64,000 nt of DNA from a virus, in the IMG/VR virus record IMGVR_UViG_3300030099_007635, positions 41,431 to 105,430 of that record; one strand, written 5' to 3'. The notes beneath the pieces are model-generated. The model saw only the letters and a list, made by a program, of their open reading frames with translations. It ran no database searches and was not told the DNA's origin. Positions 21,233-60,761 of the stretch are shown here, in pieces. Both the position numbers and the translations under genes were made by a program. Positions within the stretch are counted from its first letter, which is position 1; every line of letters starts with the position of its first letter.

Positions 21233-21978
21233 TGGTATAAATTTTGAATTTCTCTATCTTCCTTTTGTGCTAACTGTAAATTTTCTACAGAAACAGAATC
21301 ATCCCTGTGGTAGAAACAACCTATGATGTCTGGTATTTTTTTAAATTTAAATTTATTGGCAGAGAGATTTAGCCACATCTCATAATCTCCCGAAGAGGTG
21401 TATTTTTCTTTGAAGAATCCACATTTTTCTATAGCTTCTTTCCTTACCAGTGGAAATGGGCCACCAATACAAAGTTTAAGTAGAGTTTCGTGTGAATAGT
21501 CGGGCCAATTTCTCATGCCTACGATATTATCAAAGCTTTGTGAGTTAATAACACAGCATGGACTATAAAACAAATCTACTTTTGGATTTCTTAATATATA
21601 TTCTGTATATGTTTGAAGAGCGGATGGATACAATAAGTCATCAGTATTCCAATTCATAACATAGTGACCATTAGCTTCTCTTATCCCCATATTCCAAGCT
21701 GTATAGATACTAATTCTTTCTAGATTTTCTATAATGCTTACTTTTATTCCATCTCTAAAATCAAATTTTTGTATTATCTCTAGAGAGTTGTCGGTGGAAT
21801 TAGCATCAATAAAAATAACTTCAAAGCTGTCCTCAAATTGATTATTGAGGGCATTTAAATATCCTTCTAACCACTTAGAAGCATTATAAACAGAGCAAAT
21901 AACAGAAATTTTAGGCCATTGTTGCCTCTTCCCAAAATTTCCGCGCTGCTCCTTCACAACCGTTTTTAAAGTTTTCAT
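21229..21978 (-). CDS. GT2 family glycosyltransferase
   Basis: KISVICSVYN, IDANSTD, AWNMG, NTDD, GDYEMWL; start uncertain. Confidence 0.85.
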   Translation of the reverse strand: MKTLKTVVKEQRGNFGKRQQWPKISVICSVYNASKWLEGYLNALNNQFEDSFEVIFIDANSTDNSLEIIQKFDFRDGIKVSIIENLERISIYTAWNMGIREANGHYVMNWNTDDLLYPSALQTYTEYILRNPKVDLFYSPCCVINSQSFDNIVGMRNWPDYSHETLLKLCIGGPFPLVRKEAIEKCGFFKEKYTSSGDYEMWLNLSANKFKFKKIPDIIGCFYHRDDSVSVENLQLAQKEDREIQNLYQ

Positions 21979-22762
21979 ATCCTACTTTTTCAAATTCTAA
22001 ATAAGAGCCTATTTTGGAACGGTCTCCAATTATTTCCTCTACTCCACATAAAAGAGCCTCTGCTATCATTCGGCAGAAAGGTTCATTTACAATTGGTGCG
22101 TGAAATACCGCTCGCGCTTGTTGAAATATCGAAGCTGTTTCGTGATGTTCACAAGACCCGTTAAATATAATATTTTTTTCACCCTCAAAAAGACTGTGGG
22201 GGTTTCTATCTGACCAACCAAAAACATCCACCTTTCTGTCTGGGTTATTTCTTGCAAAGTTCAAAAGGTTATTTAGTCCCTTAAGTGGGTGTAAATAGCC
22301 ACAATAAACAACATCATATTTTTTTTTCTTCTCTTCTTTTTTGAAAATTTTTGTGTTGATAGGGTCGTAAACTATCACGGCATTTTTGAAATAATCGCCA
22401 TAAAGATCTTTAAAGAAAGAATAATGATAATCACTTAAAAAGAAATTCTTTTTTGAATTATTAAACAAGATGCGCCTCTCCCCATTGGATAAATAAGAGC
22501 ATGAATCGTGCTCAAGCCTAACAGAATTAGGAAGTCTCTCAATCATGTTGAGCTTAGCAGGGGAAGTTTTGCTGATTGCCTCTAGATTTGAGTTTACTAC
22601 CAAATCATAAGACGTTAAAAAATCAACAATAGAAGAATTGTGATGATGCTCATCAATCTGATAACCTAGACTTCTACCCTCTTCAATAATTAGAGAATTA
22701 CTGACTTGTGCTCCACCTTGTCTTTGTTGAAGAGTAAAATCAGATATAAATAAAATTTTCAT
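21911..22762 (-). CDS. GT4-like glycosyltransferase
   Basis: GGAQ, YCGYLHPLKG, EPFCRMIAEALLCG. Confidence 0.8.
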   Translation of the reverse strand: MKILFISDFTLQQRQGGAQVSNSLIIEEGRSLGYQIDEHHHNSSIVDFLTSYDLVVNSNLEAISKTSPAKLNMIERLPNSVRLEHDSCSYLSNGERRILFNNSKKNFFLSDYHYSFFKDLYGDYFKNAVIVYDPINTKIFKKEEKKKKYDVVYCGYLHPLKGLNNLLNFARNNPDRKVDVFGWSDRNPHSLFEGEKNIIFNGSCEHHETASIFQQARAVFHAPIVNEPFCRMIAEALLCGVEEIIGDRSKIGSYLEFEKVGYENFKNGCEGAARKFWEEATMA

Positions 22763-22793
22763 ACCTTGCTAACGGTATGATTATATCCAGAAA

Positions 22794-40830: not shown

Positions 40831-41582
40831 AGCTCACCTTTTTCCATCTGCTCGATAAGTGAGTTAAACTCATCAGGAGAGGAGGCTTGGTTGAAGAACC
40901 AGAAAGCCAAAATATGGGTGACCTTTTTAATTACATCTCCGTAAAAATCAGAAGCCTCATCTTCCTTGAGATAATAGTCTTCAATTTTTTCTTCAAAATC
41001 TTCTCCTTTGAAATAAGGAATTGGTTTTTCGTCGTCTTCACCCTGAATATAAGTCAACATTAAAGAATACCATAGTAGCAGACGATTTTGAGCTTTAATA
41101 TCAGCAGTGTGGTCAAAAAGAGACTGCATAGTGCTTTCAGCCTCAACAATATCCCTCTTAGTCTTTGCAAGTTTGTCTTTAAGTTCATCTAGACGCTTCT
41201 TTTGTTTTTCTGTTTTCTTATCAACAACCTCAAGTCTAGCATATTCATTTTGAATATCAAAAATCTCTCTGTATAGCTTTCCATAGTCTTTTGCATCTTC
41301 TTCACTCCAGACCCCACCCGTATCGCTATACTTTTTGTAAAGCATGGCCTTTGTTAAAATACCTTTTTTGACACAACGACTCATTTCAACAGAGTATTCA
41401 AGTTCTGCATCCTCTAATTCACGACGAGACGGCCTCTTAAGCCTAATCTGAACTGGAACTTTCTCCTTTACCTTTTTGGTAACGGTTGTCTCCTCACCTG
41501 TCTTTTTGTTTTTTCGAGTATGAGTCTTCTCGATCTCCTTCTCTTCGTCAACAGTAAATGTGTATAATTCTTTAAAATCCAT
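40827..41582 (-). CDS. Hypothetical coiled-coil, possible tail assembly chaperone
   Basis: Position, charged helical sequence. Confidence 0.5.
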   Translation of the reverse strand: MDFKELYTFTVDEEKEIEKTHTRKNKKTGEETTVTKKVKEKVPVQIRLKRPSRRELEDAELEYSVEMSRCVKKGILTKAMLYKKYSDTGGVWSEEDAKDYGKLYREIFDIQNEYARLEVVDKKTEKQKKRLDELKDKLAKTKRDIVEAESTMQSLFDHTADIKAQNRLLLWYSLMLTYIQGEDDEKPIPYFKGEDFEEKIEDYYLKEDEASDFYGDVIKKVTHILAFWFFNQASSPDEFNSLIEQMEKGEL

Positions 41583-41593
41583 AACCTTATTCC

Positions 41594-41881
41594 TTATTTA
41601 AATACAAAGCTTACTCTGTAATTATCAATGCTTGAGTGAAAATTTCTAATTGATTCGTTTCCAACGTCTAAAATTCTTTTCCTGATCCAATTTACCTTGT
41701 CGGGGGTAAAGTGATTGGCGGTGTCAATTATGCCATGATATTCATTTGGAATGTGTTTGTAGAGCTTCTCATAGTGAAAATCATGATCTTTTTTCATGTC
41801 TTCTACCATCATCAGCATCATTTTAAACAGGCTAGAAATGCACTGGTCTGAATCCTCATTTAATTTTTTTTTAGCGTCCAT
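41594..41881 (-). CDS. Hypothetical protein
   Basis: 95-aa ORF heading the operon. Confidence 0.6.
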   Translation of the reverse strand: MDAKKKLNEDSDQCISSLFKMMLMMVEDMKKDHDFHYEKLYKHIPNEYHGIIDTANHFTPDKVNWIRKRILDVGNESIRNFHSSIDNYRVSFVFK

Positions 41882-47088: not shown

Positions 47089-47124
47089 AAAAAAAAAGCC
47101 GCCCCCCGCAGGAGACGGCTTTTT
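47089..47124 (-). terminator. Intrinsic terminator after major capsid gene
   Basis: AAAAAGCCGTCTCCTGCGGGGGGCGGCTTTTTTTTT hairpin plus U-tract on the minus strand. Confidence 0.85.
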
Positions 47125-49004: not shown

Positions 49005-50495
49005 TTAAGAAATTTCAATGTTGTCTCGACTGAATGCCGACTTGAACTTGTCCCTTAAGGTTTCGGTCTCAGAAGCAACAGCTTCGTTGGTATTGGAAAC
49101 TGGAGCATCGGTAACTTCGGCAGCATCAAGAGCGTCTTCAACTTCAACTTCTTCAGTAGAAGCAGTAGAAACCCTTTTAGCAACCTCTTCATCAATTCGG
49201 GCCTGAATCTGAGCATCAAACTCGGCCTGAACCTCTTTGTTCTTATGTTTCCAAAGAACTTCTAACTTGGAAGCGAATGCTTCGTAAGCCTCTTGGTTTT
49301 CAAGACTCTTAAGCTCTGAAGCGAGAAATTCGCGATCTTGATCGTCAAGTTCAAATTTCTGATCAACTTCTTCCATGCGCTGATTAAAAGCTGCTACGGC
49401 TTCCTCTGCTCGCTTCTCATTTTCAAAATGAGAAATGCGCTCATTGGCAGCACCAAGCTTTTCTTCAAGTTCAGCTACAGAAGATTTGAGATCTTCGTAT
49501 TCCTTTATTTTACCTTCTTTAGCTAATCGCTCAGCCTCAATATCTTTGCGATATTGCTCATCGCGTTGGCGAATAGCATCTGCAAAAGTATCGGTCATTG
49601 AAGCGACTGCTTCTTTTGAGAATTTCTTCTCATTAAGAAGATCCTTTAGTTCGTTAAGAGTCTGTTCAAGTTCCATATCAATGATGTTCTTTTGGTTGTT
49701 TACATTTAAATTATTATTTTGTGAAATTTTATCACGGTTATCATTTATAAAAACTTTAGTCTTTTCAGGGGTTTCTCCATACAAACCCTTAACTTCTGCT
49801 GCTGGGTTTAAAGTGTAAGCTATTCCCAATGGATAGATATTACCTTGAATTAAGCGATAAATGTTCTGCCCATCTTCTGTTTTTCCAGATCCTCCATAGC
49901 TTCTAAGGTATCCTTGTAGCTCCATTATTTGATCGGGATCACTGATAATTTTAGCTTCACTTAGAACATCACTACCCACAGCTAAAACAAAATCATTGAA
50001 TCCCACCTCCCAGCTAGCAGATACTTTTTGAAACGCTGTATCATCAGGATCAAGAGACTTCTCCACCAATTGAGTAAAGTTTGGATTAACTGTCTTGTAT
50101 AAAACAGCGCCTAATGCAATATTAAATGGTTTTTTAATAGCCTGAACTATATCTTTGTCTAAAAGTTTATTAGTTCCAAACTCGCTATAACCAGCAGAAA
50201 CAATGTGTCCCACAACCTTTTGCTTGTCGTGTTCAATGTTTGTGGGTTTATGAACAAAATTATCTGTATACTTTAGAGCGGTAGAAGTATCCATACCGTC
50301 TCCATTTTTATTAAATTTATTTACTACAGCGGCATTAAACGCTACACCCAAGAGATCAACGTTCCCCTCATAATCAATATCCTTGGGGACAAGGGGAGCT
50401 AAGCTTTCTAGGGATGCCTTTGAAATCAAAGACGACTCGCTAATTTCGCAAGCTAGCAATGGACAGTCGAAAGTAGTGGTATATTTGTAATCCAT
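49005..50495 (-). CDS. Prohead protease-scaffold fusion
   Basis: N-terminal NKNGD, NIEH...VVGHI, VSASWE; C-terminal acidic coiled coil. Confidence 0.7.
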   Translation of the reverse strand: MDYKYTTTFDCPLLACEISESSLISKASLESLAPLVPKDIDYEGNVDLLGVAFNAAVVNKFNKNGDGMDTSTALKYTDNFVHKPTNIEHDKQKVVGHIVSAGYSEFGTNKLLDKDIVQAIKKPFNIALGAVLYKTVNPNFTQLVEKSLDPDDTAFQKVSASWEVGFNDFVLAVGSDVLSEAKIISDPDQIMELQGYLRSYGGSGKTEDGQNIYRLIQGNIYPLGIAYTLNPAAEVKGLYGETPEKTKVFINDNRDKISQNNNLNVNNQKNIIDMELEQTLNELKDLLNEKKFSKEAVASMTDTFADAIRQRDEQYRKDIEAERLAKEGKIKEYEDLKSSVAELEEKLGAANERISHFENEKRAEEAVAAFNQRMEEVDQKFELDDQDREFLASELKSLENQEAYEAFASKLEVLWKHKNKEVQAEFDAQIQARIDEEVAKRVSTASTEEVEVEDALDAAEVTDAPVSNTNEAVASETETLRDKFKSAFSRDNIEIS

Positions 50496-50710
50496 TATTT
50501 TTTATCCATCCAGCTTTTAGGTAGAGCACTTTCTGCTCCTATTTTTTTAGCCCTTCTAATAAGTTTGCTTTTAAACTCTTCAAAACTCATTGAACCTTCG
50601 TAGCGCCCCCAACTGCTTACAGCATTTTTTACATCTCTAGCCGAAAGCACTGGAAAAGACCTTCTTTTGGGATCAAGAAAGTCGCTGTCTTTTAGTTCAC
50701 TTCTTTTTTT
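50495..50710 (-). CDS. Start-less 71-codon frame: -1 frameshift extension of 50692..51240
   Basis: KKRSELKDSDFLDPKRRSFPVLSARDVKNAVSSWGRY...ALPKSWMDKK; its stop overlaps the next ATG (TAATG); bounded upstream by TAA at the A9 run. Confidence 0.7.
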   Translation of the reverse strand, partial: KKRSELKDSDFLDPKRRSFPVLSARDVKNAVSSWGRYEGSMSFEEFKSKLIRRAKKIGAESALPKSWMDKK

Positions 50711-51240
50711 TTACCAAATCTTTCTGCGGCAATATCCGTGAGCATCTGGGCATAACTCTTTTTAGGGGTAATTTTCTTTTTCATATCTCCCCCTCCATAT
50801 CCTCCATCAGCCTTCTTTTTGCCTTTTTTACGAAGCAACTCAAAGTCTTCCTTACTAATCTTGCCATCCTTATTCTTATCTAAACCAGATTTTTGTTTGC
50901 TGGACATGTCGGCTTTGGCTGGCTTACCTTTATATTCACCTTTTTTAGCCATTTGAGCTTTCATTTTTTCTTCAGAGTCCTTGTCAAACTTCATATCTTT
51001 CTTTAAAGCTTTTTTCTCTGCGTCCTTCTTCTCGGATGGCTTGCCCTTTTCAAGCTTTTTCATTTTGCCCTTATCGTCTTTGATAGCGTCCTTCTCATGT
51101 TCGACTTTTTCCTTTTTGGTGTCTTTCTTGAGTTCTTTTTTATCAATTTTATCATATTGCTGCTTTGTCATTGCAGCCTCGATCTCTTCCGCAGAGATAG
51201 ATACTTCGATTTCGTTAGATTCAAAATTACTGTTTTTCAT
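50692..51240 (-). CDS. Lys/Asp/Glu-rich protein with EF-hand-like motif
   Basis: LDKNKDGKISKEDF; ends GGT AAA AAA AAA GAA GTG AAC TAA. Confidence 0.75.
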   Translation of the reverse strand: MKNSNFESNEIEVSISAEEIEAAMTKQQYDKIDKKELKKDTKKEKVEHEKDAIKDDKGKMKKLEKGKPSEKKDAEKKALKKDMKFDKDSEEKMKAQMAKKGEYKGKPAKADMSSKQKSGLDKNKDGKISKEDFELLRKKGKKKADGGYGGGDMKKKITPKKSYAQMLTDIAAERFGKKKEVN

Positions 51241-53197
51241 GGCTGTGATATAAAATGGCGGCTGGGTATGCTTCTAAGCTGTGTGTGGCAGAGATATCTA
51301 AAACCTCCTTTAAGGTTTCTAAATTCTCTATTTCATTAAAATTGTTTACACACGATTCTAGCGTTTCTGCCCAATATTCTTTTGGTTGAGCGCAAACAAT
51401 AGATTCACACAGGCTGCTAGCCATCTCTTCTTGTTCATCGCTAAGCTCTTTTACTTTTAGGTTTTTAAGCAATTGAGCCTTTGCTTCATGAATTAATTCG
51501 TCTATGTCGTAGATGGTTTGTTGAATGTTTGCTCTAGAATACTGTGCGTTTGTGATCGGGATATCTGTAGTTCCCTCGGGCCTACCTGCTTCCTTTCGAG
51601 GTCCATTTTTTGCGCCACCAGCAGGAGCAATGACAGGAACGCCACCAACTATGGGATTATAATAACCCTGCTCTCGCTCTTCCAAGAAGTCTTTTTGAGC
51701 ATCATTAAGCTCATCAGGTTCAGGGAATTTACCGTTATGGAACATTTCCATGCCTTGTTTTGGGGTGATGATCCCAAGCTCCATGAGCCTAGTCGAAGCC
51801 CTCATAAGTTGAACTTCATCCCTCATGTCAATATCTTTCATTTTTGCTTCGGGCCATGATCTGAAACCAAGATCCTTAGCAACCCTTTTAATTTCTCTGT
51901 TTAAGAAATCATTTAAGAAGCCATATCTAGACTCCTGCAAACGATCAATAAATATTTGTGCTTTTACCTGAGTCGAATTAAACTTTTCTTCTCCTACTAC
52001 AATATTTTGTAAACCTTGTTTAATGTCCTCGTTTAGTATCTGATACTTTTCTGGTCCCAGAACCAGATTTAACTCGGGAATAATGAACTCTGCCTTAGTG
52101 GTGTAGTCTGAAACTAATACCCTTCCAACGCTTTCATTCTTAAACAAGCTTTGCATTGCAGCCATGTTATTAGGGTTAATACCTCCCTTGTCAGGGTCAG
52201 CCCCCATCGTTATTAAAAGTATAACGTTTTCCACGGTGCGAGTAATCGCCTGATCCATTTTCTTAAGTTCCATCTTGGCGTTTATATCATCCAGAACTGG
52301 AAAACCAAAAGGAACAGCAAATGGTTCATAATCTTGTTTTTTGTAAAAGGAAAAAGACAGCCTATTGGGGTCCAAATCTAAGTATATACCTTTTCTGCCA
52401 TAAGATCCGTCTCTTATGGATTTTTGAATCGCTGGCTCCAGTCCTTCAAAAATAGCAAGATCCTCATCTGTTTGTGGATTAGCCAAGCGAGCAATCTCAT
52501 ACTCAGACAAAAGTTTTTGATATGCTCCTGCATAATTAAACGTTGATACCCTTTTGGCGGTTATGTCATAAGGATTCAATAAGACGTAGCGTAGCGGAAT
52601 CTTGTTGGTAGAGGAATTTATTGATCCCACCTGATTAACAAGCTTTGCATAGTCTTCTGCTTTAAATTTTCCGTCTATACGGTATAAGAAAACATTACCA
52701 CTTCTATAGTATTCTCTAAAATACTGGTCTTTTAAATTAATAATATTTACCCTTTTAAACCAATCGTAGAAAAACTCCCTGCTCTTTTTAGTTCCACCTT
52801 CTAGATAAATATCGGTATTTGTGAACTCCGACATAATATCCACCGCATTTCTAAAAACCGCTACATTTGCATAAGCTTTTTGGCACAACTCGATTGCATC
52901 CCTACAGGTAACGCCATCCGATGCATACTCATACGGAAGCATTCCGATTCTAATACTGGAAAACCTATCTATTGGATTGCGAAAAGCTACTCGATTGGTG
53001 CGAGAACCATTGAATCCTTGGTTGGTTAATCCCTCTCTCCTTGCTTTAGATACCTCACCATACGAAGCTGAAGAGGTATAAAAAGGCTCCCCTAAAAGCT
53101 CAGGAGTTACTTCTTCAGATGACGGTTTAGATGGGTGATCGTTGGGATTAAACTGGTTCCAATATTCTGAACGTTTGGTATATTTTCTTTTAGCCAT
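51227..53197 (-). CDS. Portal protein
   Basis: Follows terminase; VFRNAVDIMSEF, EYYRSGNVFLY, YEPFAVPF. Confidence 0.8.
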   Translation of the reverse strand: MAKRKYTKRSEYWNQFNPNDHPSKPSSEEVTPELLGEPFYTSSASYGEVSKARREGLTNQGFNGSRTNRVAFRNPIDRFSSIRIGMLPYEYASDGVTCRDAIELCQKAYANVAVFRNAVDIMSEFTNTDIYLEGGTKKSREFFYDWFKRVNIINLKDQYFREYYRSGNVFLYRIDGKFKAEDYAKLVNQVGSINSSTNKIPLRYVLLNPYDITAKRVSTFNYAGAYQKLLSEYEIARLANPQTDEDLAIFEGLEPAIQKSIRDGSYGRKGIYLDLDPNRLSFSFYKKQDYEPFAVPFGFPVLDDINAKMELKKMDQAITRTVENVILLITMGADPDKGGINPNNMAAMQSLFKNESVGRVLVSDYTTKAEFIIPELNLVLGPEKYQILNEDIKQGLQNIVVGEEKFNSTQVKAQIFIDRLQESRYGFLNDFLNREIKRVAKDLGFRSWPEAKMKDIDMRDEVQLMRASTRLMELGIITPKQGMEMFHNGKFPEPDELNDAQKDFLEEREQGYYNPIVGGVPVIAPAGGAKNGPRKEAGRPEGTTDIPITNAQYSRANIQQTIYDIDELIHEAKAQLLKNLKVKELSDEQEEMASSLCESIVCAQPKEYWAETLESCVNNFNEIENLETLKEVLDISATHSLEAYPAAILYHSHEKQ

Positions 53198-53245: not shown

Positions 53246-55111
53246 TTAAGAAATGAACATTGGAGTAAAAGTGGTTTGCACAGTGTCTATATTATCCGAA
53301 TTCATATCGTAGAAAACATTCATCGCCCAATTGCCTAAAACTAAAGCAGAATAAGAGTCTTTACGGGCTTTGTCAGCGCCACTCTGCTTTCTTAGGTTAG
53401 CGGGTAAATCAAAACTTTGAGTTCCTTGAAGAGAAGTCGTAATTTGTATCAGCGCACATTGAACCTTGATTAGATCCATCATATCTTTTTGGTGCTCTAC
53501 AAAGTCAATCATTCTCGCCCCCGCTGGCCCTCTTTCATTTGGGTCATTTCTAATGAATTTTAACTCTTTAATTGGAACATTGGATTTGCGTTGAATATTA
53601 TAATCATCATTCATTGCTGCTCCTGCAAAGAATATCCTCTTGTGATCAAATGCCGCTTGAAGTTGCTCATTTGCATTTCGTATCCACTGGGAAGTTGGCT
53701 TTCTAAGAAAAACTATGTTTTTAGTGGTTAAATTGTATTGGTTTTTGACCTTTCTCAAATTCTTTTCATAGTCTGGAACTTTATCTAAGTCTGCCTCAAT
53801 TACGCCAAGTTTTAAATTTTTCTTTTTAAATATATCGCTTTCGTTGCAAGAGTTAAGAAACTGAACCCCTCCATTGTAGTCTCCAACCACAGCAACAATA
53901 TTAAAATGCGTAAGAAGGTAGGCTGCATATTTAATATGTGTTTTTAAATTAGCTCCTGATAATCCGTAACTGTGAACCACTGTTCCTTTTCTAGTATCAC
54001 GATTCAGTTTTATCACAAGCATTGCAAAATCATCAGAGCTTTCACTTTCAGACCAAGAAGGGTCAAATGCTAAAATATACTCATCCTTTGGATTACCCAC
54101 TACCTCTACAGACTGCCCCTCTCCATCTGGAATAGTGCAAGCGGCCATCTTGCTTACTTTGAAGTATCCTGAACTGTCATCTGTAAAAATGGCCCCAAAT
54201 TCTCTTTCAAACTGAGAATCGCTCATGGTTGCCCTTGATTGACTTATAAGGTTTTGATCATATAGTTGCTCGGGAGCGCAATCATAACTAAAGTGCATAA
54301 TTGTCCTATGTGCTCCATCTTGCTTGTTCTCATTGAGAATTAAGCTTTCGTATTGCTGATATATCTTATAAAGGTATTCGAATTTGTAAGAGGCAGAAGA
54401 CAAACCAATAATTTTGTTGTTTGGCCAAACTCTTCTATCCTCTTCTTTCATTTTTCCCTTCTCTATCATTTGAGTTTCCAAATCATAGATCTCCTGTCTC
54501 TCTGTAGGATTTTCCACCACGGAAAGGAAAGGAATAATAACCTCATTATAAATTTTCTCAGGCATGAGAAGTAATTCATCAATAATCATTCGCTGGAAAC
54601 GGAAACCCCTAAGTTTCTCACCATCACCAAGCGGAAGAGCACGGATGCTACTTCGACCAATCTCCATGACCCATTCGTCATTCATTTTGGAGACTCTTGT
54701 AACACATTGAGAGAAAAAAGTTGCTTTGGGGCTTTTTGATATATCTTCTATCTTTTTAAAGATCATCTTTGACTGCCTGAAAGACTTAGACAAAATACCT
54801 ATCTGAACACCCTGATTTAAAATAGCGTCTAAGAGCGCGAAAATGCCCGTAGAGAAGCTTTTGGACATTCCACGGCTCCATATGCCCAAAAAGTAATCAG
54901 ACTCCATCATGGCCTTAATAGCCATATGTTGAAAAGGGAATAACTTAACACCAGTGAACAATTCACAGGCAAAGGAAGGGTTTTCCCTCAGAAACTTATA
55001 AAGCAAAATCTTTGATTCAGTTTCCTCTAAATATCCCTCTTTGTCTAGAATTAGCTGATTTATATCCTTGAACTCTCTGTGGAGCTTCTGTCTTCCTGTT
55101 TCCCAAGCCAT
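53246..55111 (-). CDS. terL: Terminase large subunit
   Basis: LFPFQ, Walker A SRGMSKS, LRGFR, Walker B IIDE, SSA, nuclease AFDPS and KDSYSAL; start MAWETG. Confidence 0.9.
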   Translation of the reverse strand: MAWETGRQKLHREFKDINQLILDKEGYLEETESKILLYKFLRENPSFACELFTGVKLFPFQHMAIKAMMESDYFLGIWSRGMSKSFSTGIFALLDAILNQGVQIGILSKSFRQSKMIFKKIEDISKSPKATFFSQCVTRVSKMNDEWVMEIGRSSIRALPLGDGEKLRGFRFQRMIIDELLLMPEKIYNEVIIPFLSVVENPTERQEIYDLETQMIEKGKMKEEDRRVWPNNKIIGLSSASYKFEYLYKIYQQYESLILNENKQDGAHRTIMHFSYDCAPEQLYDQNLISQSRATMSDSQFEREFGAIFTDDSSGYFKVSKMAACTIPDGEGQSVEVVGNPKDEYILAFDPSWSESESSDDFAMLVIKLNRDTRKGTVVHSYGLSGANLKTHIKYAAYLLTHFNIVAVVGDYNGGVQFLNSCNESDIFKKKNLKLGVIEADLDKVPDYEKNLRKVKNQYNLTTKNIVFLRKPTSQWIRNANEQLQAAFDHKRIFFAGAAMNDDYNIQRKSNVPIKELKFIRNDPNERGPAGARMIDFVEHQKDMMDLIKVQCALIQITTSLQGTQSFDLPANLRKQSGADKARKDSYSALVLGNWAMNVFYDMNSDNIDTVQTTFTPMFIS

Positions 55112-56027
55112 CTTTTTTAAGTTGTTTGTCCCAAAAATACTGGACATCTACTGCCCATAGTTTTTTTCCTAAAACAAGAATTTTGGGAATAATTTCTTCG
55201 CTTTTACGTCTAGAGCCGCTAAACACAAATTGACAACAATCTGAATACTCAGCCTGTATCTCGCGCATTCTATGGTAAACATAATCTAAATTAAATTTTT
55301 TATATCCCGCCCTATTGGTAGCCCACATCTTGTCAAAGGCAGTTTCTATAACCACAAATAACATACATCCCATTGATCTGCATCTTTCTAGCTCTTTTGC
55401 GAATCTAGCATAGCCATTAGTAATCGTAGCACAGAAATCCTGGTAAGACTTCCTATCCACGAATGTATAGTCATATAAATCACCCCCTACAGCGTAGTCG
55501 CCCACATCCAACTTTAACGACTGAGAGTTCTTAAAATATAATGGCTTTTGTTCTCTTGTATCTACCAGTATAGGTGTATCTGAGTAATCGTTTTTAAATT
55601 CATTTGGTAATTGCCCCGATAACATGGGCAATATACCAAATTGTTTACAAGCTTCGCTATAACTGCCGAATACCTCTTTGCAGAGGTCTACATCGGGTAA
55701 TCCTACACTCTGTAGATAAGTGGAAGGTGGTCCAGCTTGTAGCCCTTTGGCTTGAATTTTCTTTTTAAAAGCTTTTATAATATATTCCTTAACCTCTGAC
55801 GATGGTGCTGTTTTGCACCATTTTTTCATGTTTTTTTTATTGATGAAGTCAGCAGCGAAATACTGATCGTATTTTTTGAATGGAATTAGTTCTTTAGTAA
55901 GTTTGTCTTTCCTTGCATAATTATCCACATAGTAATCTCCAAGGAGTTTACCGTGTTTCTTTATGTGTGCGTGGAGGCTTCTTAATGAATCAAAAGAATC
56001 GCCACACTCTTTGCAATCATAAGACAT
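55017..56027 (-). CDS. C2H2 zinc finger + ERCC4/XPF-type nuclease
   Basis: CKEC...F..L..H...H; VDTREQ, LDVGDY, VDRKS.QDF. Confidence 0.8.
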   Translation of the reverse strand: MSYDCKECGDSFDSLRSLHAHIKKHGKLLGDYYVDNYARKDKLTKELIPFKKYDQYFAADFINKKNMKKWCKTAPSSEVKEYIIKAFKKKIQAKGLQAGPPSTYLQSVGLPDVDLCKEVFGSYSEACKQFGILPMLSGQLPNEFKNDYSDTPILVDTREQKPLYFKNSQSLKLDVGDYAVGGDLYDYTFVDRKSYQDFCATITNGYARFAKELERCRSMGCMLFVVIETAFDKMWATNRAGYKKFNLDYVYHRMREIQAEYSDCCQFVFSGSRRKSEEIIPKILVLGKKLWAVDVQYFWDKQLKKDGLGNRKTEAPQRVQGYKSANSRQRGIFRGN

Positions 56028-60261: not shown

Positions 60262-60498
60262 ATGACTAACTTGACTACCACACTCACCGCCGCTATCGCC
60301 TCCGCTGTTCGCCTTGCTCCTCGCTTCGCCAATGAAGATGGCGAGTTGATCTTTAACTCTCTGATGGACTGGTATCCTACGCTCACCGAAGGTCACGCTG
60401 ATATGATCGTGCGCCGCGCTTGCATGAATGCCACGGCTGGCTCCAAGGCTGTTGGCTGGGATACCTTCGCCGCCGATCTCCTCAAGGAGATGGCTTAA
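60262..60498 (+). CDS. Early hypothetical protein
   Basis: 78 aa after P1. Confidence 0.75.
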   Translation: MTNLTTTLTAAIASAVRLAPRFANEDGELIFNSLMDWYPTLTEGHADMIVRRACMNATAGSKAVGWDTFAADLLKEMA

Positions 60499-60516
60499 AA
60501 AAAAATAAAATAAAGC

Positions 60517-60551: not shown

Positions 60552-60743
60552 ATGAAAATCAAAGACACTACCACAAAGTCCGATCTCGACAAGTTCCACA
60601 CTGAGCGCAAGGCGGCGCAGGTAATGCGGGATGATCTCAACTTCCTTATGGGATGGATCAAGCCCGACTGCCCACAGGGTGCATCTGCCCTTGAGCGTAT
60701 CCTTAAGGCTCACGAACAAAACAGAGAGCAAAGCTGGCTCTAA
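60552..60743 (+). CDS. Early protein (63 aa), paralog of 63050..63238
   Basis: MKIKDTTTKSDLDKF...HEQNREQSWL. Confidence 0.8.
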   Translation: MKIKDTTTKSDLDKFHTERKAAQVMRDDLNFLMGWIKPDCPQGASALERILKAHEQNREQSWL

Positions 60744-60761
60744 AAAAAAAGAAAATAAAAC

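Follow-up and report, generated by a model that had tools for sequence, protein, structure and literature searches.

The interval between the portal and protease-like genes

We analysed a stretch of 64,000 nucleotides (nt), hereafter the window, from the IMG/VR virus record IMGVR_UViG_3300030099_007635 (positions 41,431 to 105,430), which derives from an uncultured marine tailed phage and encodes on its minus strand a head module with an interrupted gene, here called ORF-A (open reading frame A). The gene order is large terminase, portal, ORF-A, an apparent gap of 197 base pairs (bp) and a gene for a protein of 496 amino acids (aa; Table 1). The portal gene overlaps the start of ORF-A by 14 nt, and ORF-A ends on the minus strand with GGT AAA AAA AAA GAA GTG AAC TAA, that is, with a run of nine adenines (A9) shortly before its stop codon. 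What appears to be a gap is an open frame at -1 relative to ORF-A (the 0 frame): a TAA at 50713-50711 is followed by 71 open codons (KKRSELKDSDFLDPKRRSFPV...LPKSWMDKK) up to a TAA at 50497-50495, which overlaps the ATG of the 496-aa gene in the sequence TAATG. The first ATG, GTG or TTG of this frame in the window is a GTG at codon 21 (50650), and no CTG, ATT, ATC or ATA start precedes it. An earlier, sequence-only reading of this DNA had described the end of ORF-A, the A9 run, the open -1 frame, its TAATG coupling to the next gene and the lack of a start codon before its N-terminal part, all of which proved exact on the minus strand. It had also placed a -1-frame TAA at the start of the run; this holds in the window and is not universal, as one relative (L163) has GGC-A9 and its -1-frame stop a few codons earlier.

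We propose that programmed slippage at the A9 run very probably makes a long form of the ORF-A product. By standard decoding, translation would stop three codons past the run and yield a Lys-rich protein of 182 aa. In a fraction of events one extra A would be read at the run, shifting decoding into the -1 frame and adding 69 residues, so that the slip would complete a DUF6582-like domain in an isoform of 248 aa, predicted to read ...AAERFGKKK-RSELKDSDF... across the junction. If one A were lost instead (A8), decoding would meet a stop within 2-6 codons, so that unproductive slips would be harmless, a point that we count toward slippage by RNA polymerase (see below). From comparisons of sequence, the A9 run appears to be a real recoding site that evolution has maintained in the head-assembly module of this phage, a conclusion that we regard as well supported.

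Table 1. Features of the head module around the A9 run, in window coordinates
Feature	Position	Strand	Description
Large terminase	53246..55147	-	Terminase_6N and phrog_2
Portal gene	51227..53197	-	Upstream neighbour of ORF-A; phrog_2739 (weak) and distant Bacillus phage portal proteins
ORF-A (0 frame, predicted short isoform)	50692..51240	-	182 aa, Lys/Glu-rich
A9 slippery run	50704..50712	-	Codons AAA AAA AAA; in-phase A_AAA_AAA heptamer at 50710-50704
0-frame stop TAA	50692..50694	-	Three codons past the A9 run; would terminate the short isoform
-1 frame extension	50495..50704	-	69 codons and stop (RSELKDSDF...LPKSWMDKK); body of the DUF6582-like domain
Candidate 9-bp hairpin	50658..50683	-	50683-50675 with 50666-50658 (GACUUUCUU/AAGAAGGUC); starts 20 nt 3' of the A9 run
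496-aa gene	49005..50495	-	Downstream of ORF-A; protease-like N-terminal part and coiled-coil C-terminal half

Conservation of the A9 run in contigs and reads

With the portal protein as the query, 80 related loci were retrieved from IMG/VR, all from marine metagenomes and 77-100% identical. At 25 of these loci, as in the window, the domain follows a GGT-A9-GAAG junction in the -1 frame, and a 0-frame stop comes three codons on. A search for the junction pattern that permitted A8 to A11 returned 30 contigs with A9 and one with A10 from IMG/VR, and 25 contigs with A9 and the same single A10 contig from a larger metagenome collection (Tara, ENA and JGI assemblies), so that A9 outnumbers A10 about 50 to 1 across some 20 datasets. 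These searches answer the question, left by the sequence-only reading, of whether homologs share the broken frame. The A10 contig (L036; IMGVR_UViG_3300009790_000916 = Ga0115012_10008759) has a continuous ORF at the site (region L036:3788).

The sequencing data agree with the assemblies. The probable source run of the window shows A9 at a depth of 128 with no indel, and a contig from an independent study spans the A9 run without difference. In sequencing run X10, from a third study, one A10 contig of depth 2 stands beside A9 at depth 39 (window 50710). The A10 of L036 and that of run X10 may be real DNA-level length variants or errors. The sequence-only reading had held that A10 in the reads, and hence a homopolymer error, would dispose of the site; with A9 found in many contigs and independent runs, a homopolymer sequencing error is ruled out.

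Within the A9 lineage the run is invariant in the 21 unique A9-type sequences, at a locus where adjacent synonymous sites are about 60% diverged. AAG is never used at any of the three Lys codons of the run, and accounts for ~40% of the Lys codons in these genes. All A9-type relatives share the position of the 0-frame stop, and the last three residues before it vary (EVN, EVS or EAS); the three codons thus change non-synonymously in the 0 frame by substitutions that are synonymous in the -1 frame.

Purifying selection on the -1 frame

Nei-Gojobori estimates were obtained from the same 21 sequences. Variable sites after the run are distributed over codon positions 1, 2 and 3 of the -1 frame as 12, 9 and 55. 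Over the 71-codon stretch, the proportion of synonymous differences (pS) in the -1 frame is 0.60 and that of non-synonymous differences (pN) is 0.023, which gives a pN/pS of 0.038. The first 18 codons after the run are the most constrained, with a pS of 0.709, a pN of 0.004 and a pN/pS of 0.006, and, when read in either of the other two frames, the same bases show a pS of about 0.05, a pN of about 0.15 and a pN/pS of about 3. The sequence-only reading had offered a programmed -1 frameshift or transcriptional slippage with two isoforms, and the combination of a conserved break with strong purifying selection on the frame behind it supports this proposal.

The purifying selection on the -1 frame excludes a decaying pseudogene. 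More broadly, the notion that the break is a homopolymer sequencing or assembly error, or that the gene was recently inactivated and its 3' part is decaying, has next to no chance of being right and is already contradicted by the data: some 50 contigs, produced in many studies and with many assemblers, have the same A9, the -1 frame is near synonymous saturation and has hardly changed in amino-acid sequence, and a 0-frame stop three codons past the run is conserved. These observations stand against the facts that homopolymers are error-prone on some platforms and that continuous homologs exist.

We also considered whether the domain could be made as a separate small protein, unfused to ORF-A, by internal initiation or by termination-reinitiation. 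Free-standing proteins of ~95-130 aa with this domain do occur in other phages, and the window offers the GTG at codon 21. The free-standing homologs, however, have a leader of ~12-100 residues and start before the KR-S-x-L-K-D-S-D-F block, which no start codon precedes here. No start codon of the -1 frame is conserved among the A9-type relatives compared; the first possible one drifts between codons 21, 22, 27, 31 and 41, and the 18 most constrained codons precede any of them. A shifting start behind 18 constrained codons makes independent initiation not credible, and since the domain profile also continues into the tail of ORF-A (see below), we consider a separate protein hardly conceivable.

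A DUF6582-like domain encoded on both sides of the run

The domain begins in the 0 frame, where its first residues (AAERFGKKK) are encoded ahead of the A9 run, and its body is encoded in the -1 frame. An exhaustive HMMER search returned 354 cluster representatives with the domain, nearly all of which match from query residue 1-3, and in unrelated small proteins the conserved block starts upstream of the position of the junction, as A-[AEQ]-x-x-[FY]-G-G-K-K-R-S-x-L-K-D-S-D-F. A junction-crossing profile was made from 27 unrelated proteins, none of them from the locus set of this phage family. It aligns without a gap across the slip site and scores 132.9 bits with the trans-frame product and 121.8 bits with the post-run part alone; its score with the short 0-frame product is not significant. 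The ungapped alignment indicates a single ancestral module, of which the end of ORF-A forms one half and the -1 frame the other.

DUF6582 (PF20223) is a Pfam family of unknown function. The domain of the window matches it with 15.3 bits (E 0.025) and does not reach the gathering threshold of 27.3 bits; among its relatives 8 of 32 match at E <= 0.01, the best at 3.7e-4. By these scores the domain would be a distant relative of DUF6582 and not a member. An AlphaFold2 model of the domain (predicted local distance difference test score 89) consists of a β-hairpin followed by helices. No solved structure was found to resemble this model (best Foldseek E 1.7; best VIA-wide Z 3.9), a search of BFVD with the domain returned only uncharacterised phage proteins having the same domain, and a literature search on DUF6582 found nothing.

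Its partners in other proteins are more informative. Among 96 longer homologs the domain is joined to prohead proteases (S78_2, Mu-like_Pro and S78; ten in all), to HK97-type capsid (2) and portal (1) proteins, to 2H phosphoesterases (4-5) and to ferritin/Dps (2). The fusions to prohead protease, capsid and portal proteins suggest a role inside the procapsid, where our guess is that the domain anchors or targets the protein that carries it. One could go further and see in the DUF6582-like block a general module for targeting to, or anchoring in, the procapsid interior, with the A9 run as a dial for the stoichiometry of anchored core-protein copies; we hold this to be unlikely. If true, phages would use the module on cargo enzymes (2H phosphoesterase, ferritin/Dps) as well as on proteases and on portal and capsid proteins, and the dial would have three settings, with the anchor on no copies (domain absent), on every copy (continuous ORF) or on a fraction (A9). 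Apart from this reading, the recoding site provides an initial clue to the function of a domain that is widespread, uncharacterised and associated with head-assembly proteins.

Continuous, domain-less and gene-less relatives

A sister lineage encodes ORF-A and the domain as one continuous ORF that reads ...AAERFGGKKRSALKDSDF... at the junction. It comprises 6 loci among the portal matches and 25 among the domain matches, which partly overlap, with 16 distinct junction sequences. Their junction codons follow the pattern GGN GGN AAA AAR CGN/AGR, in which A-runs span only 4-7 bases and AAA is freely exchanged for AAG. The trans-frame product predicted for the window is collinear with these relatives, with no residue gained or lost, and the A9 run arose by a Lys codon replacing their second Gly codon. 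The sequence-only reading had regarded homologs that were all continuous as an argument against recoding. Continuous homologs do exist, and many A9-type relatives are broken; moreover, the continuous ones encode the predicted junction without an A-run and so lend support to the trans-frame product. That the continuous lineage avoids long A-runs suggests that the run is kept for a purpose where it is present.

At many continuous loci (L013:2693, L017:2324, L026:4080 and L027:4358 among them) the junction is GGA AAA AAG and contains an in-phase A_AAA_AAG, of all heptamers the one on which shifting is most frequent in Escherichia coli. A -1 slip at this site would lead to a stop after about 8 codons and to a short form. 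The heptamer is not conserved in the continuous lineage, where GGC AAA AAG and GGG AAG AAA are also found, and is probably fortuitous.

The continuous lineage also bears on the question of whether the run is a DNA-level contingency locus, or an unselected indel, in which replication slippage interconverts A9 and A10 and only A10 genomes make the long form. The A10 contig L036, with its continuous ORF, and the depth-2 A10 of run X10 are what such a locus would produce. Yet A9 prevails about 50 to 1 in some 20 datasets, long A-runs are avoided by the continuous lineage, and the weak purifying selection that would be predicted for A9 genomes is not what we see, pN/pS being 0.04 at a pS of 0.6. 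A contingency locus is thus very unlikely.

In a third set of relatives the domain is absent and ORF-A ends with ...TDIAAKKYSDGV or similar. Four loci (L029, L030, L031 and L051) have no ORF-A at all; there the portal ORF leads directly into the protease-scaffold gene with an 11-nt overlap, so that ORF-A is dispensable in some members of the family. Homologs of ORF-A, variable in length, are present in most of the 80 related loci. In a quick portal tree of these loci (L001-L080) the A9, continuous, domain-less and ORF-A-less states are interleaved, and the A9 state requires at least three changes on well-supported branches. These results suggest that the ORF-A region is a cassette exchanged between phage backbones, or that it has been lost repeatedly. 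The different states provide a natural allelic series (domain absent, always fused or reached only by slippage), through which the roles of the domain and of the isoform ratio can be tested directly.

A second set of 80 loci, all of which carry the domain, was examined for recoding. None was found outside the A9 lineage, the more distant loci (L164-L212) all being ordinary uninterrupted ORFs that start upstream. The phage lineage is widespread in ocean metagenomes. At the nucleotide level the window has no match among cultured phages. A continuous homolog used as the query found nothing among them either; the portal and terminase have only ~22-32% identical relatives among cultured phages, the portal in Bacillus and Microcystis phages and the terminase mainly in Bacillus, Lactococcus and Clostridium-type phages.

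Proposed slippage by RNA polymerase or by the ribosome

Several points weigh against programmed slippage or limit what can be said of it. The window, with a G+C content of 39%, contains six A9 or T9 runs, one of them inside a continuous frame of 286 aa, and run length alone is therefore no proof of function. DNA-level length variants such as those of L036 and run X10 could supply some of the long form without recoding. The sequence, its conservation, the selection on the -1 frame and the homology across the junction are observed, and we infer the two isoforms and their ratio, and likewise the machine that slips, the frequency of slipping and the function of the domain; none of the sequencing runs listed for the stretch is of RNA. 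Finally, any A9 contains an in-phase A_AAA_AAA, so that the sequence cannot separate slippage of the polymerase from that of the ribosome.

The other five A9/T9 runs of the window lie at 22319-22327, 41864-41872, 47089-47097, 60497-60505 and 60742-60750. The first is the one inside the continuous frame (minus strand, 21911-22768), and the second lies at the edge of two open frames.

Within programmed slippage, stuttering of RNA polymerase is slightly favoured and would be the likelier route, with -1 ribosomal slippage on A_AAA_AAA a strong second; both may contribute. On the polymerase route, RNA polymerase would stutter on the T9 template and produce an mRNA with A10. A homopolymeric A or T run of about nine or more, as is characteristic of transcriptional slippage sites, is present here as A9 in ~50 contigs, and nine A/T is the length at which bacterial RNA polymerase slips efficiently without other signals, for example in Thermus dnaX and Shigella spa13 (PMC5009743). 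The preference for the polymerase rests on this classic length and on the finding of no well-placed stimulator. The A9 run has two A's more than the heptamer needs, and these surplus A's, together with the origin of the run by a Lys-for-Gly replacement, may also be counted toward the polymerase route.

The ribosomal route has features of its own. As expected of a -1 frameshift site, the -1 ORF lacks its own start and is conserved as coding sequence from the shift site onwards, and the heptamer is of the canonical X_XXY_YYZ form, in phase and invariant in the 21 unique relatives. Moreover, phage tail-chaperone genes as a rule use -1 frameshifting, as do several capsid genes (PMC5009743), and the ribosomal route is the customary one in phage structural genes. 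For E. coli ribosomes, however, A_AAA_AAA is far less shift-prone than A_AAA_AAG (PMC5009743), which favours the polymerase. A purely ribosomal -1 programmed frameshift, nested within the recoding reading, would leave the mRNA at A9; tandem tRNA-Lys slippage on A_AAA_AAA, stimulated by a hairpin, would send a few percent of ribosomes into the -1 frame.

The sequence-only reading had pointed to a hairpin 10-20 nt downstream of the run. Both of its stems are present: the 9-bp stem (GACUUUCUU/AAGAAGGUC) and a stem AAAAGAC/GUCUUUU that begins 10 nt after the A9 run. In an RNAalifold consensus fold the 9-bp stem is the sole proposed stem that is predicted, and 95% of cells pair. Its covariation, however, is no better than that of shuffles (392/500), that of the AAAAGAC/GUCUUUU stem is likewise not beyond shuffles, and the local fold around the run is no better than shuffles (z -0.7); the pairing of the 9-bp stem follows from the conserved DFLDPKRRS codons. 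The usual spacer between a slippery site and a ribosomal stimulator is 5-9 nt, so the 9-bp stem, at 20 nt, is too far away. For want of covariation, because of the distance of the 9-bp stem and given the z of -0.7, we rejected both hairpins as supported elements and do not count the 9-bp stem as a functional part. No stem backed by conservation or covariation was found 5-9 nt downstream. A purine-rich GAAAGR directly 5' of the A9 run might serve as a weak Shine-Dalgarno (SD)-like element, in the manner of E. coli dnaX. With the weakness of A_AAA_AAA in E. coli without stimulators (PMC5009743) and the two A's that the ribosome would not need, the purely ribosomal, hairpin-stimulated frameshift is a tentative possibility.

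The consensus fold also has a 4-bp stem immediately 5' of the run, which we considered as a nascent-RNA stimulator of slippage and rejected as too weak and G-U rich. No tRNA genes were found in the window, and hence no hint on tRNA-Lys.

Comparison with known recoding sites

The closest parallels to programmed slippage at the A9 run are dnaX of Thermus thermophilus (tau/gamma) and spa13 and mxiE of Shigella, in which a run of nine A/T in a coding sequence gives two products that differ at the C terminus and no accessory RNA structure is required; as in spa13, the extension here overlaps the start of the next gene (PMC5009743). Standard decoding would give the short and slippage the long product, as in spa13 and opposite to Thermus dnaX. 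Unlike these cases, the present site lies in a gene of a phage head module, and its RNA is predicted, on the polymerase route, to vary in length.

With E. coli dnaX and the orfAB genes of the IS3 family (A_AAA_AAG or A_AAA_AAA) the A9 site shares an in-phase heptamer of Lys codons and a predicted trans-frame fusion. In both of those systems a stem-loop lies downstream at a suitable distance, joined in dnaX by an SD-like element upstream, whereas here no stimulator at a usable distance is supported; the last base of the heptamer is A and not G.

Among phages, genes 10A/10B of T7 and T3, the major head protein of Lactobacillus phage A2, the capsid and tail proteins of Listeria phage PSA and G/GT of lambda are comparable in that an assembly gene makes mostly a short form and, less often, a long form that has an added C-terminal domain, an arrangement conserved in relatives (PMC5009743), as we predict for ORF-A. 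In those cases the recoded gene is that of a major capsid, tail or tail-chaperone protein and the added domain is often Ig-like, while the recoding site described here lies between portal and protease-scaffold genes and would add a DUF6582-like domain. A limited literature search found no described recoding between portal and protease genes, or adding this domain. The mechanism would thus be of a known kind in a new gene context, and it adds a well-supported recoding site to the small prohead-core or scaffold-type genes beside the portal, where we found none described. Automatic annotation leaves a 200-bp 'gap' at the site, and gene callers systematically miss the predicted long isoform.

ORF-A and the putative protease-scaffold gene downstream

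The head module has the synteny TerL, portal, ORF-A, protease-scaffold. In T4 the head genes follow one another in the order 20, 67, 68, 21, 22, 23, and we take the position of ORF-A to be that of the small prohead-core genes in T4-type head modules. By this positional analogy ORF-A may have a prohead-core or scaffold-type role. Neither Pfam nor PHROG has a family that ORF-A matches, save for an EF-hand loop that scores below threshold. This loop comprises residues 121-132 (window 50845-50880, minus strand), where DKNKDGKISKED followed by FELL resembles the canonical calcium-binding loop of EF-hands; the match to Pfam EF-hand_5 has an E of 3.3e-4, below the cutoff, and the motif is retained in many domain-less relatives as KDGKVTKEDFELL.

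The 496-aa protein has no match in Pfam or PHROG. It has ~1475 homologs, which form an unannotated family, and two distant ones carry PF05929 Phage_GPO. Its N-terminal part (~30-240) appears to have a fold like that of herpesvirus assemblins and prohead proteases: herpesvirus proteases occupy nearly all of the ~45 best Foldseek rows, mostly with a probability of ~0.8-0.97, at E values of about 6e-3 and with low template modelling scores. The family alignment contains invariant His and Ser columns. The C-terminal half, from ~270 on, is a long, scaffold-like coiled coil. On moderate evidence for the N-terminal fold, the protein appears to be a putative fusion of a protease fold and a coiled coil, and the label 'protease/scaffold' given to this gene by the sequence-only reading is reasonable in view of both parts. 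Some homologs are mislabelled at source as 'Smg (DUF494)' or 'phage shock protein A'.

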